Below, piece by piece: positions 9,390 through 15,921 of a stretch of 56,200 nt of DNA (positions are counted from its first letter, which is position 1; every line of letters begins with the position of its first letter). Made by a program: the position numbers and the translations under genes. The notes below the pieces were generated by a model. It was given only the letters and a program-made list of their open reading frames with translations, was not told where the DNA came from and did no database searches. The DNA comes from Bdellovibrionota bacterium. GTDB lineage: Bacteria > Bdellovibrionota > FAC87 > UBA2466. The DNA lies in NCBI GenBank assembly GCA_041736915.1, contig JBGSST010000241.1:1-56200 (forward strand). Direction: 5' to 3'.

Positions 9390-11672
9390 GTGTTCCCCAC
9401 TCAAACCGCCGTCGTAGCGTCCATTGGTTTAGCCCTGCTTTCCGCTTGCTCGGGGCCGCCACCCTCGGCCGAGAGTAAGGAAAAGAATCCTTACGCCGCG
9501 GAATGGGCGGGCACCCGGTGCGAGGTGGTCACGGACCAGCAAGACCTCGTGCACGTGCGCGCGGAGAAAGAGGAAAACGCCTACGCGTGCCTCGGCTACA
9601 CCCACGCCCAGCACCGGGCTTTTCAGATGGATTACCTGCGCCGGATTGCCTCGGGCCGTTTGGCCGAGATCACCGGCACGGACGCGCTGAAGGGGGATTT
9701 TTTTCTCCGACTAGTCGGCCTGCGCGAGAAGGCGCTAGCCCTATTCACGACGATGCCCGAGTCCGATCGCAAGTTTCTATGGGCTTACGCGCACGGGGTG
9801 AACAGTGCGTTCGCCACCGAAGCGGTGAAGCAAGCCTACGAATTTAAACACTGGGAGTATCAGCCCGAGCCATGGCACCCGGTGGACTCACTCGCGGTTC
9901 TACTGCTGGAATCCTTCAACGAAACCCAAGCCTCGTTTTGGCAGGGGCTGAAAGAAGAAAAAGCGCTCGAGCGGTTTGGGCCAAAGGCGCGGGAGCTGTT
10001 CCGGCCGTACGACCTGCCTTGGGACACGCCAATTCTTAAAACGGGCGAAACGTTGCGCGATCGTACGCGGCGTTCGGCCGTGCGTGAGCCAGGTTTCGAT
10101 ACCCGCGAAGGTCAAGCGCCGTGGGCTACGGATGTGAACGTGGCCGAATCGGGAAGCAATAGCTGGGTCATCGGCAAGAGCCGTTCAAAATCCGGGAACG
10201 CGTGGCTAGCCAACGATCCGCATTTGGAGATGACGCATCCGTCGTTCTGGTTCTGGGTTCACCTGGAGTCGGGAGATCTCAACGTGATCGGTTCCACCGT
10301 ACCCGGCGTGCCGGTCGTGGTCGCGGGTTATAACAAAAAGGTCGCCTGGGGACTTACCGATTCTTACGTGGCGGTGGGCGAAGTGCTGGCGGTGTCGAAG
10401 GAAGACACCCATTCGTTCACGACCATTTCGCCCACGGTTTACGTTCGGGTGCTGGGGATGAATTTGCCGATCGGCTTCAAGAAGTTCCAGCGCAGCCCCG
10501 AGGGCTGGCCGGTGTTGCCCATCGATGCGCCCAAAGGAAAAGTGCTCGTGCTTAGGTGGAGCGGCCTTAGCATCTCTTCGATGGGGCTTACCTCATTGCC
10601 CAAGATTCACAAAAGCGGATCGGCCAGTGAAACCGCCGACTGGTTTTCGGGAGTGGAGCTGCCGTCGTGGAACTACGTGTTCACCGATGTGCGCGGCAAT
10701 CTCGGGTACCGGGCGATTGGTCTGCTGCCGGCTTTCGAAGGCGAGCGACCCTTCGGCGTAGCGGACGGCAAAGCCGCCTCATTGGGTGAGTGGAAATTTT
10801 TGTCCAAAGAAGATGGGCCTTACGTCTTCAATCCGAAACGAGACTTCGTGGCTACCGCCAACAATCGGCAAGAGATCGATGCCTTGCCGCAGGACCGCGG
10901 TCGCGCGCACAAATTTTCTTTTCGCGCCTTTCGCATTGAAGAGCTGATTCAGAAACAATCCAAACACGACTTCGCGTCGATGGCGGAAACGCAATGTGAT
11001 TTTCAGGCAACCGACGGCCGCTTTCTCGCTCCCCGGCTCGTGGCCTACGCGGATCGAATCGATCGGCGGCATTTCGGCTGGCAAGAACGGGAAAACCAGG
11101 CCATCGATGTCATTCGCCAGTGGAACTTCGATGCGGGCCCCGGCTGCACCGCGTGCGCGGTTTACTTTCGCTGGCTCGAACGAATTGCCGAAAGTACCGG
11201 GTTGAACATCGTCGCGCTGTACCGCGTGCTCGAAGGACCCAGCGAGTTCGACTTTGCCCTATCGAAAGCACTTTCCAAGGCTTTGGACGATCTGCAGATT
11301 ATCGACTACCGCCCATTCGCCCTCTGGGGAGACATGCACCGGCTCTACTTCCTGCACCCGACGCATTCGCCCGATTTCGAAATGTTTGATTTCTTGAAGA
11401 CGGGTGGATGGGATCACACGGTGAACATGGCGTCGGGCGATTGGGTTGGCGATCACTACCGCCAACGTTCGGGCGCTTCGCACCGGCTGCTCGTAGAGAT
11501 GACCGATCCGCCCACCGGCTACTTCGCCTTGCCCGGCACGTCGATGGATACGGAGCTGAAAGCGATTCGCGACGACAACGGGCCGTGGAGAAAGTGGCAA
11601 GACTGTAAGTATCAAAAAGTGCAGTTCCCGTATGACTGGAACCAGTCCACGCCCAAGGTCGTGACGTTGTGA
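9390..11672 (+). CDS. Penicillin acylase / Ntn-hydrolase family lipoprotein
   Basis: Lipobox LSAC, LGYTHAQHRAFQMD, GSNSW (nucleophile Ser), LANDPHL and TANN motifs. Confidence 0.92.
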   Translation: MFPTQTAVVASIGLALLSACSGPPPSAESKEKNPYAAEWAGTRCEVVTDQQDLVHVRAEKEENAYACLGYTHAQHRAFQMDYLRRIASGRLAEITGTDALKGDFFLRLVGLREKALALFTTMPESDRKFLWAYAHGVNSAFATEAVKQAYEFKHWEYQPEPWHPVDSLAVLLLESFNETQASFWQGLKEEKALERFGPKARELFRPYDLPWDTPILKTGETLRDRTRRSAVREPGFDTREGQAPWATDVNVAESGSNSWVIGKSRSKSGNAWLANDPHLEMTHPSFWFWVHLESGDLNVIGSTVPGVPVVVAGYNKKVAWGLTDSYVAVGEVLAVSKEDTHSFTTISPTVYVRVLGMNLPIGFKKFQRSPEGWPVLPIDAPKGKVLVLRWSGLSISSMGLTSLPKIHKSGSASETADWFSGVELPSWNYVFTDVRGNLGYRAIGLLPAFEGERPFGVADGKAASLGEWKFLSKEDGPYVFNPKRDFVATANNRQEIDALPQDRGRAHKFSFRAFRIEELIQKQSKHDFASMAETQCDFQATDGRFLAPRLVAYADRIDRRHFGWQERENQAIDVIRQWNFDAGPGCTACAVYFRWLERIAESTGLNIVALYRVLEGPSEFDFALSKALSKALDDLQIIDYRPFALWGDMHRLYFLHPTHSPDFEMFDFLKTGGWDHTVNMASGDWVGDHYRQRSGASHRLLVEMTDPPTGYFALPGTSMDTELKAIRDDNGPWRKWQDCKYQKVQFPYDWNQSTPKVVTL

Positions 11673-13087: not shown

Positions 13088-13579
13088 CTACTGCACCGAG
13101 ATGATATCGAGGTCGCGCATTTTTCCGCGCACGAACACGCTTATCTGATCGCCGGCCGTGGTGCCGAGCAGCGCCTCACCCAGCGGAGACTGCGGCGTAA
13201 TGCACTGAACAGTTACGCCATTGTGCTCGACGGTGATACCGCCGCCCGACGGCATGAGCATGCACCAGGTTTTATGACCGTCTTCGTCGTCCAGCTCCAC
13301 GAGCGCGGTGGACACAATCTTCGATTTCGCGTCGAAAGATTTGATATCCACGTGCTTGAACTGGTTGAGCGTGGCTTGCAGCTCCATCGCCCGCTTGGAT
13401 TGTGCGCCGGCGAGATAAGAGGCCTCTAGTCCACGGGTATCGTACTTATCCTCGGCCTTGCTCTCGGAGTTCACCGCGGCGTCGTGGGCCGCAAGTGAAG
13501 CCTGCACTAATACGGCGAGATCCGCCTCGAGCCGGGCGATGAACTTTTCCAGAATCTCTTTTTTGTGCAGGGGGGCCAT
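13088..13579 (-). CDS. GreA/GreB-family transcription elongation factor-like protein
   Basis: ESKAEDKYDTRGLEASYLAGAQ and ITPQSPLGEALLG motifs; start set at MAPLHKK. Confidence 0.85.
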   Translation of the reverse strand: MAPLHKKEILEKFIARLEADLAVLVQASLAAHDAAVNSESKAEDKYDTRGLEASYLAGAQSKRAMELQATLNQFKHVDIKSFDAKSKIVSTALVELDDEDGHKTWCMLMPSGGGITVEHNGVTVQCITPQSPLGEALLGTTAGDQISVFVRGKMRDLDIISVQ

Positions 13580-13744
13580 GGGATGGCCTTGTATACCAGA
13601 GATATCCCGGCGCGCCATACCGATGTTGGGATCACTCTGACACCTCTTCGCCGCTCGACCCGGTAGAACTTTCCCACGCGCGCCGTTTCATCTGGCGTTT
13701 TTTCGGGTCCCGATTTTGCACTAACAGGAGGCCTGGAGGACAAA

Positions 13745-14086
13745 GTGAAACCAATGTTGAAGTGGAATCGTCGTACGTTCCTGTCGTTAGCGGTAGTAGG
13801 GGGGCTCACCACACTCGCGGTGGTGCTTACCCAACAAAGTAAATCGGGAGTCGCTATTGAACAGCTAGTGTTGGTGCAGGACGAGTTGCGTACCGTCTCG
13901 GCCGCCAACAGCTCTAACGTTTACTTGGACGCTTACGGACAGGTGCATGCGGCGCCGGTCGACCTGGGAGGCAATGTCTACCTCGATAACCAAGGCCAGG
14001 TGCACGCCGCACCCGTTAACCTTGGCAACTCGCACACGTCGCTCTTTGGTGGCGCGCAGTTACCCAAACCTCAACGGCTGGAGTAA
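13745..14086 (+). CDS. Small Tat-signal precursor-like protein with two 18-aa repeats
   Basis: NRRTFL twin-arginine motif and hydrophobic stretch; repeats NVYLDAYGQVHAAPVDLG and NVYLDNQGQVHAAPVNLG; GGAGG RBS upstream. Confidence 0.75.
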   Translation: MKPMLKWNRRTFLSLAVVGGLTTLAVVLTQQSKSGVAIEQLVLVQDELRTVSAANSSNVYLDAYGQVHAAPVDLGGNVYLDNQGQVHAAPVNLGNSHTSLFGGAQLPKPQRLE

Positions 14087-14088
14087 CC

Positions 14089-14604
14089 GTGGGCCGCGCT
14101 AAAAAAGCGGCGGTAGGTCTACTGTTGGCCGGTCACGGAGCCATGGTCATCGCCGGGGTTTTCCAGGTGGTACCTTTCCGTGACCGGGCCTTCGGTCAGC
14201 TCTTCACCACGCTCAGCATCGTTACCGGAACCCAAACCAACTTCAGCTTCTTCGCTCCGGGCGTGGGCTCACAACTCAAAGTGACCTTTCGCGTGCATCT
14301 GCCCTTAGAGACCAAGGAAGAGGTGTTCGCCATTGGCACTCGCGAGGCGGAGCTGCGGATTGGGAACATGATCGACACCTTTTGGGGCCGTAGGGTGAAC
14401 GAAGAGGTGAAGCAGTCGGTCGCCGCCTCGTGGGCGGCCAAAGTTTTTGGCGATCACCCCGATGCCAAGGCGGTCGAGGTTTTCGTGGATGCCTTCGAGC
14501 TGCCGAGCATGGTGGAGTACAAGGACGGAAAGTTACCTCGCTGGGATCGGTTCTATACGGCGACTTTCAAGAAGGCGGGCGGCGATGTGGCGATCCCTTT
14601 ATAG
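14089..14604 (+). CDS. DUF5819/SdpA-like membrane-anchored protein
   Basis: N-terminal TM segment with His; NFSFFAP motif (cf. WxxFAP); lies directly before an HTTM gene. Confidence 0.6.
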   Translation: MGRAKKAAVGLLLAGHGAMVIAGVFQVVPFRDRAFGQLFTTLSIVTGTQTNFSFFAPGVGSQLKVTFRVHLPLETKEEVFAIGTREAELRIGNMIDTFWGRRVNEEVKQSVAASWAAKVFGDHPDAKAVEVFVDAFELPSMVEYKDGKLPRWDRFYTATFKKAGGDVAIPL

Positions 14605-15487
14605 TAAGGCGGATAGGTTTTTCTTGGCGCCGGCCTCCGCGGCGCCGCTAGCGGTGCTGCGAATCACGCTGAGTGGACTCTTGATCGTTCAGGCGTACTT
14701 GTTTGCGGCGCACCTGCACGACATTTACGGCGAGTTCGGCATCATTCAGGCTAAGCTCAATAGCTACTTCGTGGGGCCGCTCCACCTCATCGCCAACGCG
14801 CTGGGGCCCGAGGGGATCACGTACACGTTCTACCTGTACGTGGCGTCGCTGGGTTTTTTGCTGCTGGGCTGGCGCACGAGAATCGCCAGCGTGCTGGTGT
14901 GGGCCACCCACTTCGTCGTGTTCATGAGCCGCGGCCACGTATCGTCGTACGGCGTGGATACGTTTTCGCACATCGCACTCTTCTACCTGATGTTCTTCCC
15001 GTCGAACGGCATGTGGTCGATGGATCGCGCCCAAGGGCGGGCGGTGGATGTTTTCAGCGCGCGCAACCGTTTGGGCATCCGGGTGATGCAGCTGCACCTG
15101 GCCTTCTCGTACCTCGCCACCGGAATCGCCAAGGCGCAGGGGGCGCAGTGGTGGAACGGTGAGGTGATCTGGCGCGCCACGATGCTGCCGGAGTTTCGTC
15201 AGTTCGACTTCAGCTGGATAGTGAGCATGCCGTGGCTGGCGAAAGCGTTGGCGCTTTCCACGCTGGTGCTGGAGATTGGTTACGCGATTTTCATCTGGCC
15301 GCGGGCCACGCGTAAGGTGTGGGCCTGGAGCACCATCGCCTTGCACTTGGGAATTCTGGTGTGCCTCGGCCTCACGACGTTCTCGCTCGTGATGATGGCG
15401 CTAAACTTTTCGCTCTTCGTAATTTCGGCGGAGAAGGAACTAATCCTTCCCCGCCTTGCATTACCGAGAAAACCTAAACTGGCTTAG
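14585..15487 (+). CDS. HTTM-domain (SdpB / vitamin K-dependent carboxylase-like) membrane protein
   Basis: LAVLRI, LLLGWRTR, YGVD, WSMD, QLHLAFSYLATGIAK...WWNG, LEIG and LHLGI...FSLVM motifs; ATG 14585 overlaps the upstream gene. Confidence 0.85.
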   Translation: MWRSLYSKADRFFLAPASAAPLAVLRITLSGLLIVQAYLFAAHLHDIYGEFGIIQAKLNSYFVGPLHLIANALGPEGITYTFYLYVASLGFLLLGWRTRIASVLVWATHFVVFMSRGHVSSYGVDTFSHIALFYLMFFPSNGMWSMDRAQGRAVDVFSARNRLGIRVMQLHLAFSYLATGIAKAQGAQWWNGEVIWRATMLPEFRQFDFSWIVSMPWLAKALALSTLVLEIGYAIFIWPRATRKVWAWSTIALHLGILVCLGLTTFSLVMMALNFSLFVISAEKELILPRLALPRKPKLA

Positions 15488-15921
15488 AACATCGAGACGC
15501 CGGAGCCGAAGCTCAAGCTGAGCGCGAAGTTTCCGTAGCCCTGGTTCTGTCCGCCACAACCCTGTTGGCCGTGACCGCGACGATGCCGGCGAGAGCGACG
15601 GCCATTCTGTCCGCAAACCGGGCGCGGCTGGGGTTGCCCGCATCCGCCGCCGAACTGCTGTTGTCCGTGGTCGCCACCACCGTATCCCATGGGCTGGTAG
15701 CCCCCGCCCATCGGATAGCCTTGCGGCATTCCGTACTGTCCGCCCATCTGGGGCATCGAGTAGCCTTGCTGCGGCATCTGGCCGTAGCCAGCTTGCGGGT
15801 AGCCCTGCTGGATCGGCTGGCCGTAACCGCCGGCGCCGCCGTAGGGGTTAGGCATCTGAGAAAACTCCGCCATCGCGGGAACCGCACTCAACATCACAAA
15901 AGCGAATACAAATCGAATCAT
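15484..15921 (-). CDS. Secreted Gly/Gln/Pro/Tyr-rich low-complexity protein
   Basis: Signal peptide (AMA), PQ/GY-rich repeats, GGAGG RBS. Confidence 0.65.
   Translation of the reverse strand: MIRFVFAFVMLSAVPAMAEFSQMPNPYGGAGGYGQPIQQGYPQAGYGQMPQQGYSMPQMGGQYGMPQGYPMGGGYQPMGYGGGDHGQQQFGGGCGQPQPRPVCGQNGRRSRRHRRGHGQQGCGGQNQGYGNFALSLSFGSGVSMF

Follow-up and report, generated by a model that had tools for sequence, protein, structure and literature searches.

A gene cassette of an exported repeat protein, an accessory membrane protein and an HTTM protein in a Bdellovibrionota bacterium: a candidate substrate-enzyme system

We analysed a stretch of 56,200 nucleotides (nt) from a Bdellovibrionota bacterium (assembly GCA_041736915.1, contig JBGSST010000241.1, positions 1 to 56,200), referred to below as the window, and focused on three consecutive genes at 13745-15487. 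Gene A encodes an exported protein with two 18-residue repeats, gene B a single-pass membrane protein, and gene C a membrane protein that, judged by its structural model, is a true HTTM protein with the membrane core of the human vitamin K-dependent carboxylase GGCX. The three genes recur as a cassette in at least five phyla, and they may represent a substrate and its two-protein enzyme. The features of the locus are as follows.

13735-13739, + strand: ribosome-binding site GGAGG, 5 nt ahead of the GTG of gene A, read from the sequence
13745-14086, + strand: gene A, open reading frame (ORF) of 113 amino acids with a GTG start, exported repeat protein, presumed substrate
13766-13783, + strand: twin-arginine-like motif NRRTFL, residues 8-13 of A, in the n-region of the signal and followed by a hydrophobic stretch
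13856-13885, + strand: N-terminal motif IEQLVLVQDE, with the family pattern hydrophobic-x-x-L-x-L-V-x-acidic
13916-13969, + strand: repeat 1, NVYLDAYGQVHAAPVDLG, 18 residues
13973-14026, + strand: repeat 2, NVYLDNQGQVHAAPVNLG, 18 residues
14060-14083, + strand: C-terminal motif LPKPQRLE, with the family pattern hydrophobic-P-x-P-x-hydrophobic-x-L near the C-terminus, from alignments
14089-14604, + strand: gene B, 171 amino acids, single-pass membrane protein of an unnamed family
14585-15487, + strand: gene C, 300 amino acids, ATG at 14585, in frame with a longer ORF from 14447
15131-15133, + strand: codon of Lys183 of gene C, the counterpart of GGCX Lys218 (codon checked)

The coupled genes and the repeats of gene A

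Genes A, B and C are translationally coupled, as described in a first-pass annotation of this DNA: the stop codon of A and the start of B are separated by 2 nt, and B and C overlap by 20 nt. The GC content at third codon positions is 0.66, 0.73 and 0.81 for A, B and C, respectively, against an overall GC content of 0.577 in the window. The two repeats of gene A share 15 of their 18 residues, with different codons at 12 of these 15 positions, and only 35 of the 54 nucleotides are identical. The 19 nucleotide differences are distributed as 4, 1 and 14 over codon positions 1, 2 and 3. When 19 random substitutions were simulated, none of 200,000 runs retained at least 15 of the 18 residues, which indicates that the repeat is selected as a peptide. 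The codon-position count and the simulation thus confirm the peptide-level selection claimed in the first-pass annotation, and the 2×18-residue repeat of gene A is under purifying selection. Its description of the composition also holds, in that the repeats contain Asp, lack Glu and Cys, and are joined by one Gly.

Gene A matches no family in Pfam or NCBIfam, and an Atlas search gave no usable match. The repeat type NVYLDxxGQVHAAP was found nowhere beyond the window, because a metagenome scan with C, which returned nine loci (best 46% identical), contained no close orthologue of this cassette. With regard to export, the same annotation had proposed a twin-arginine (Tat) signal. The motif is indeed present at residues 8-13, its RRTFL fits the consensus, and the genome encodes TatC, so that Tat export is possible for the copy in the window. 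As a property of the system the proposal does not stand: an Arg-Arg pair was observed in only 1 of 21 aligned partner proteins. No clear AxA or signal-peptidase cleavage site was seen after the hydrophobic stretch, and the protein may remain anchored in the membrane. Separately, a metagenomic partner protein (L102, 1425-1820) carries the motif IEDLALVEEH, a His run and LPSPQVELKEAK, with an Arg-Arg pair in the n-region of its signal as in the protein of the window.

Proteins C and B and their relation to known systems

In a Pfam search, gene C itself gave no PF05090/HTTM row at E ≤ 1, and its sole row was DoxD (E 0.022). A relative 74% identical to C (P0005) scored 33.3 bits with PF05090 against a cut-off of 27.7, covering profile positions 2-251 of 259, and most of 120 gene C homologues carry a precomputed PF05090 match among the matches listed. 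A structural model of C built on 78 sequences had a predicted local distance difference test score (pLDDT) of 91.9. The 16 best Foldseek matches of this model were all human GGCX; for 15 of these, E was at most 2.2e-4 and TMq lay between 0.59 and 0.71. Superposition with VIA-align on GGCX residues 41-321 gave a Z of 21.9 over 270 residues, with a root mean square deviation of 3.6 Å. The 15 best GGCX chains, spanning GGCX 40-327, had Z values of 19.3-21.9, and the best unrelated chain reached 8.7. The family profile of gene C also matched the GGCX sequence at E 2.5e-4. The assignment of C to HTTM in the first-pass annotation is therefore supported by both the fold match and the close relative that passes PF05090.

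Comparison of C with GGCX revealed that C superposes on GGCX 41-327 and keeps counterparts of its quinol-deprotonation site. In the hidden Markov model (HMM) alignment, Lys183, Trp189, Glu230 and Phe266 of C correspond to Lys218, Trp223, Asp263 and Phe299 of GGCX, respectively, and none of the four varies among 78 aligned homologues. In GGCX, Lys218 is described as the general base, acting with Trp223 and Asp263, and Phe299 as the CO2-stacking residue (PMC12647623, in the text available). The lysine of YLATGIAK, which had been placed in the catalytic-Lys region, is this Lys183. According to the positive-inside rule, both termini of the modelled C would be cytoplasmic and Lys183 would face the periplasm. 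In contrast to GGCX with its 758 residues, C has 300 and stops at about GGCX residue 327, so that some 430 residues of GGCX have no counterpart, and it lacks the lumenal clamp, the cap and the C-terminal domains. A further difference is that a separate 171-residue protein B is always present here, and that the presumed substrates are low-complexity repeats without a Gla-domain (γ-carboxyglutamate) pattern.

The model of B (pLDDT 87.0) consists of a transmembrane helix at residues 3-24 with a positive N-terminus, a second helix, and a predicted periplasmic β-β-α-α-β-β domain; a near-invariant FFAP motif is a further feature of the protein. The first-pass annotation had named B a DUF5819 protein resembling SdpA, and none of the sequence-based tests supports this identification. 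Searches of Pfam and NCBIfam with B were blank at E ≤ 1, including for any SdpA family in NCBIfam. PF19136 (DUF5819) run over the whole genome found none of the six B paralogs, and its best match, E 0.113, lay on an unrelated contig. A 96-sequence profile of B aligned by hhalign to one true DUF5819 protein from Sorangium with a probability of 0.3%, and to eight DUF5819 proteins (the Sorangium one and seven from Bacillus, Streptomyces and Virgibacillus plasmids) with 6.3%, the match comprising 31 columns at the C-terminal hairpin. B does share the architecture and context of the DUF5819/SdpA type, with an N-terminal transmembrane segment, an extracytoplasmic domain of about 140 residues and a position directly upstream of an HTTM gene. 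By this architecture, the position and collinear motifs read by eye (FFAP in B, LFAP in DUF5819), B may work like DUF5819, yet it cannot be assigned to that family.

A profile of eight members found 750 cluster representatives of the B family at E ≤ 1e-3, 498 of them at E ≤ 1e-10. None of 36 sampled representatives had a relevant Pfam match, the Sorangium member is named "hypothetical protein" by NCBI, and the Atlas clusters nearest to B are unnamed hypothetical proteins of Myxococcota and Bdellovibrionota. A word-index search was weak for B, with 3 and 14 matches. No Foldseek match to the B model was found at E ≤ 1e-3, and the profile matched nothing in the PDB sequences under E 0.1. The best VIA Z, 4.4, was for a T-fold-like arrangement (urate oxidase, dihydroneopterin aldolase) and lies below a meaningful level. 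B showed no sequence match to GGCX, and no GGCX chain was among its fold matches. B is the obligatory partner of C and belongs to a family without a Pfam or NCBIfam model.

The DUF5819-HTTM pair is a related arrangement. A structure prediction in a 2026 preprint, of which part was available, treats such pairs as a split GGCX-like complex in which the accessory protein occupies the clamp position (10.64898/2026.08.19.745780); it is the sole functional proposal for them that we found. The two systems share the gene order of small exported protein, single-pass accessory and HTTM protein. Identity between C and the HTTM protein paired with a true DUF5819 protein is 27% (E 7e-15), and the spacing of Lys183/Trp189/Phe266 in C equals that of the Lys189/Trp195/Phe273 given in the preprint. 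Among the differences, no DUF5819 signal was detected in B, which is the shorter protein and has no counterpart of the long charged helical insert. The upstream proteins also differ, being Gly/Ala-rich, about 100 residues long and ending in ..FD next to DUF5819, whereas here they carry repeats and an L-x-L-V-x-E motif. Both systems occur at separate loci in one Sorangium genome. As an observation on the DUF5819 systems themselves, the true pairs (L120-L126 and L111) came from Bacillus, Streptomyces and Virgibacillus plasmids and from Sorangium, and in some loci a DCC1-like oxidoreductase is fused to the HTTM protein or follows it. An exported Gly/Ala-rich protein of about 100-130 residues lies upstream in 7 of the 8 loci, the place being taken by an IS5 transposase in L124. 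These proteins are duplicated in two loci, and all those examined end in ..FD(Q/L/K/N).

In Bacillus subtilis, an exported precursor with a signal peptide requires the HTTM-type protein SdpB and the accessory SdpA for its maturation outside the cytoplasm (PMC6818787, in the part available). The sdpABC and yitPOM operons for the maturation of the SDP and YIT toxins thus likewise combine an HTTM-type protein, a small accessory and an exported precursor. The specific likeness to SdpB that had been suggested for C is not borne out, with 38.8 bits on the NCBIfam model TIGR04033 against a cut-off of 178.4. B has no SdpA-family match, and the precursor gene is first here and last there. A lacks both a hydrophobic toxin domain and a Cys pair, and no immunity gene adjoins the cassette. 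Linaridin clusters also contain an HTTM-domain protein in a ribosomal-peptide context, LinG/CrdG with the α/β-hydrolase LinE, whose mechanism is described as unclear in the available text of PMC9927463. In contrast to linaridins, ORF clustering at 88 loci (Lin-specific models were not run) showed no hydrolase, decarboxylase or methyltransferase conserved with the cassette, and the partner is exported by a signal peptide and is not Thr-rich. TMcin (PMC13712780) was also considered and judged unrelated.

The cassette family and its repeat partners

The genome carries six paralogous A-B-C cassettes, the one in the window and five others, whose C proteins are 43-48% identical. In each of the five others, a B homologue lies directly upstream of C and an exported repeat protein before that, with the repeat types NVGHTSNGSVVHTF, GRGTGRG, HHG (twice) and YYRPxFRP, the last ending a longer protein. 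Among 40 related genomes, B was found in 5 of 24 from the same family and in none of 16 beyond it, and an exported repeat partner was present at 6 of 7 loci in these five genomes. A wider scan with an alignment of C, using one genome per species, yielded 132 relatives of C, and 80 loci were retained from these. They came from Sorangium (several per genome), Nannocystis, Minicystis, Planctomycetota, Oligoflexales/Bdellovibrionales, Thermoanaerobaculia, other Acidobacteriota and Bacteroidota. In 79 of the 80 loci, from at least five phyla (Myxococcota, Planctomycetota, Bdellovibrionota, Bacteroidota and Acidobacteriota), the gene immediately upstream of C is B; at the remaining locus the sequence breaks off 167 nt ahead of C.

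An exported protein was found upstream of B in 69 of the 79 loci and contained tandem repeats in 40 of the 69. It was identified as a same-strand ORF with a signal-like N-terminus that ends within 400 nt of B, a heuristic that misses true cases (L021 and L082) and takes the wrong frame in a few. The small protein is therefore a conserved partner of the pair, as the first-pass annotation had expected, and is not absent beside homologous pairs. All-against-all ORF clustering at 88 loci revealed no conserved family besides A, B and C, and in particular no conserved protease or transporter.

The partners of the type found in the window consist of a signal peptide, about 5-12 residues and then the strand-like motif hydrophobic-x-x-L-x-L-V-x-acidic (IQDLVIVEET in Sorangium). 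Of 12 partners in this genome and its relatives that were identified from gene position only, 11 contain the motif. In the wider scan, a regular expression with a hydrophobicity filter matched at 39 of 79 loci, of which 30 were accepted. The nine dropped matches were in the wrong frame (L038, L066 and L079) or belonged to other partner types (L074, L091, L095, L096, L097 and L100). In a MAFFT alignment of 21 partners, only the Leu (Leu41) and the acidic position (Asp46) of the motif reach at least 90% conservation; since these 21 were picked partly by the motif, its conservation there is not independent evidence. The C-terminal pattern hydrophobic-P-x-P-x-hydrophobic-x-L is present in many, not all, partners of this type (type 1).

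The region after the N-terminal motif, pooled over the 21 partners, contains 15.7% Gly, 12.5% His, 9.2% Pro, 7.4% Tyr, 6.4% Arg, 0.8% Lys and 0.1% Cys. The His content is at least 19% in 8 of the 21, and the other 13 are rich in Tyr/Arg/Pro, Gly/Arg, Phe/Pro or Asn. The repeats are arranged head to tail and of low complexity, with types such as HHG, GYRPY, HGHW and GGFRGGYRGG. Their units range from 3 to 18 residues, those of the window being the longest and the least low-complexity, and the N-terminal motif is conserved regardless of repeat type. Further partner types also place repeats between conserved ends: one with TVNTxNxF in Acidobacteriota and Chitinophagaceae, one with poly-Gly-GSH in Myxococcota and Flavobacteriia, and one in Saprospiraceae. 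A poly-Gly insert within a larger conserved protein makes up the low-complexity stretch of one partner type. Neither A nor any of 12 sampled partners belongs to a Pfam or NCBIfam family.

A maximum-likelihood tree of 86 C proteins, computed by a quick method, places each repeat type in a single supported C clade, with support of 99 for HHHHG, 100 for YYRPAAG, 99 for HGHW, 100 for GYRPY/FRPYG, 99 for DDDGWGRRRR, 100 for GGFRGGYRGG and 100 for GRG. Single Sorangium genomes carry three or four lineages side by side, three of them among these repeat-type lineages. The C protein of the window pairs with that of the NVGHTS cassette in the same genome (support 88, not starred).

Several observations concern single lineages or the surroundings of the cassette. 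Two loci (L004, 1999-2853; L009, 2-592, - strand) carry a gene for a trypsin-like serine protease (PF00089, E 6e-14) that overlaps the end of C. It was found 3' of C only in the HHG/HYSG cassette lineage, where it may be a lineage-specific processing enzyme. A one-frame B-C fusion in a Riflebacteria metagenome-assembled genome (L089, 1859-3424) was discounted, as about 25 residues of the N-terminus of C are lost and the topology does not fit; this join may be a deletion or an assembly artefact. In the window, a hairpin followed by a T-run (13680-13698, + strand) lies just 5' of the operon, and the preceding gene is on the opposite strand; such sites are no more frequent in the region than in shuffled sequence. 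Tail to tail with gene C and outside the operon is a 145-residue signal-peptide protein (15484-15921, - strand) rich in Gln, Gly, Tyr, Met and Pro. Its C-terminus, ...SLSFGSGVSMF, resembles an outer-membrane C-terminal signature, and Pfam and NCBIfam scans gave no family match. A penicillin amidase family protein (9390-11672; PF01804, E 3.5e-116) and a GreA/GreB-C-terminal-like protein of 176 residues (13088-13618, - strand) are further neighbours, neither of which is kept beside other cassettes.

A candidate mechanism, its alternatives and its meaning

We propose, with a probability of roughly 55%, that A-B-C is a cognate substrate-enzyme cassette for a periplasmic, quinol-driven modification, the chemistry of which we do not specify. 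This reading is based on the coupling of the genes, the six paralogous cassettes, the B-C pair at 79 of 80 loci and the partner at 69 of 79. The N-terminal motif in 11 of 12 partners, the assignment of repeat types to clades, and the GGCX fold with its active-site residues kept also argue for it, as do the positive N-terminus, transmembrane segment and confidently modelled domain of B, the finding that no other gene is conserved with the unit, and the split GGCX-like complex predicted for DUF5819-HTTM pairs. In the proposed mechanism, B would take the place of the lumenal clamp by which GGCX holds its substrate, and the N-terminal motif of A would dock on the periplasmic face of B-C. C would use a membrane quinol, probably with O2, to make a strong base via Lys183, and this base would deprotonate A. 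The acidic residue of the motif could be carboxylated as a result, or another C-H deprotonation reaction, such as epimerisation or elimination, could take place at backbone or side-chain positions of the repeats. GGCX anchors a hydrophobic "Eup"-Glu dipeptide (PMC12647623, in the text available), and the Val-Glu of the A-family motif recalls it; the hydrophobic motif and acidic residue of A loosely resemble propeptide and dipeptide together. The modified repeat protein may then act in the envelope or outside the cell, in matrix formation, adhesion, metal binding or antagonism.

Several points weigh against this proposal. GGCX binds the carboxylate of its substrate glutamate with Asn159 and His160, together with Tyr395 (PMC12647623, in the text available). 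Asn159 and His160 are not kept in C, where they fall on Gly123 and Val124 in an alignment of E 2.5e-4 that may be shifted by 1-2 columns, and Tyr395 and Met401 lie in a part without counterpart. With these residues replaced or missing, true γ-carboxylation is doubtful, and C is best described, as far as the alignment can tell, as that half of a GGCX-type enzyme which handles the quinol, with the substrate site of GGCX missing. The acidic residue of the motif is Asp46 in the protein of the window and Glu in the other aligned partners. The repeats of the 21 partners have no residue common across the family, so that an enzyme acting on a specific residue of the repeats is hard to picture. At one locus (L012, 106-1458), B-C is preceded not by a small A but by a 450-residue protein that has two CxxCH haem-binding motifs and belongs to no Pfam family. 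The supply of menaquinone is a further concern, as models of MenB, MqnC, MenA and UbiA had no above-cut-off match in the genome, which is 94.9% complete. Finally, relatives share repeat labels, so the clade pattern indicates stable cognate pairs and is no proof of co-evolution.

In a more specific version of the substrate-enzyme proposal, the cassettes would be protein carboxylases or another C-H activating system driven by quinol and O2. The acidic residue of the motif would become a Gla-like or β-carboxy-Asp site for metal or mineral, which would anchor extracellular low-complexity proteins. We regard this version, and carboxylation itself, as distinctly improbable. If true, it would be the first protein modification of the vitamin K type known from bacteria, and the anchored proteins, rich in His/Gly, Tyr/Arg/Pro or Arg/Gly/Phe, would form matrix, adhesive or metal-sequestering material.

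Alternatively, A could be a multi-core precursor of ribosomally synthesised and post-translationally modified peptides, whose repeats would be modified and then excised, for example at GG, to yield small bioactive peptides in the way that SDP arises from SdpC. The purifying selection on the repeats agrees with this idea, the conserved flanks could serve as leader and follower, HTTM proteins have roles in SDP maturation (PMC6818787) and occur in linaridin clusters (PMC9927463), both sources being available in part, and the HHG/HYSG cassette has a trypsin-like protease gene after C. Yet neither a protease nor an exporter is conserved with the cassette (88 loci), and units that shrink to three residues (HHG) in dozens of copies, rich in Gly, His, Pro, Tyr and Arg, do not look like spaced cores with cleavage sites. 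Moreover, the flanks rather than the cores are conserved, the joint between GG and N is peculiar to the window, and the poly-Gly insert inside a larger protein fits poorly with excised cores. We therefore consider this explanation unlikely. The first-pass annotation had taken the repeats as cores modified or cleaved outside the cytoplasm; its exported and conserved partner remains, and its multi-core scheme with GG cleavage is weakened by the unconserved joint, the three-residue units and the lack of a conserved protease.

The conserved ends of A could also be read by a B-C machine without redox chemistry, one that matures or escorts A and promotes its trimming, its sorting or its release to the outer membrane or surface. 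The motifs at both ends would suit such a role, and the partners in DUF5819-HTTM cassettes likewise have a conserved C-terminal ..FD tail. The invariance of Lys183, Trp189, Glu230 and Phe266 across 78 homologues is hard to explain without catalysis, and HTTM proteins are not known as proteases or transporters, so this explanation is also improbable, to about the same degree as excised peptides. It is also conceivable that A is no substrate at all and instead a low-complexity protein of the periplasm, perhaps a His-rich metal binder, merely co-expressed with or regulating a B-C pair whose target is a different one, such as a lipid or quinone. The eight partners with at least 19% His, the weak NCBIfam noise matches of partners to Ni/Co and Zn proteins, the weak DoxD-like signal in the HTTM protein (E 0.022) and the locus without a small A point in this direction. 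Against it stand the 13 of 21 partners below 19% His, the independence of the N-terminal motif from repeat type, the one-to-one relation of repeat types with C clades and the tight translational coupling, and we regard it as very unlikely.

A literature search found no report of the cassette, the accessory family B, the repeat-protein partners or their motif. The general theme, in which an HTTM protein and a single-pass accessory accompany a small exported protein, is known or predicted from sdpABC/yitPOM, linaridin CrdG and DUF5819-HTTM pairs; the B family, the repeat partners and the motif are, as far as this search shows, new. The cassette defines an accessory family of 750 cluster representatives, not covered by any Pfam or NCBIfam model, and a class of exported bacterial low-complexity proteins with a composition like that of eukaryotic RGG/YG domains. 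Under the substrate-enzyme reading, the A-B-C family would represent a minimal two-protein enzyme with diverse, genetically linked candidate substrates in culturable hosts, carriers in culture being Sorangium cellulosum So ce56, Nannocystis exedens DSM 71, Aquimarina pacifica and Pedobacter petrophilus. The several cognate pairs per genome would make swaps of partner specificity feasible. The cassette thus points to candidate natural substrates for the bacterial HTTM/GGCX homologues, an enzyme class without a known function in bacteria.

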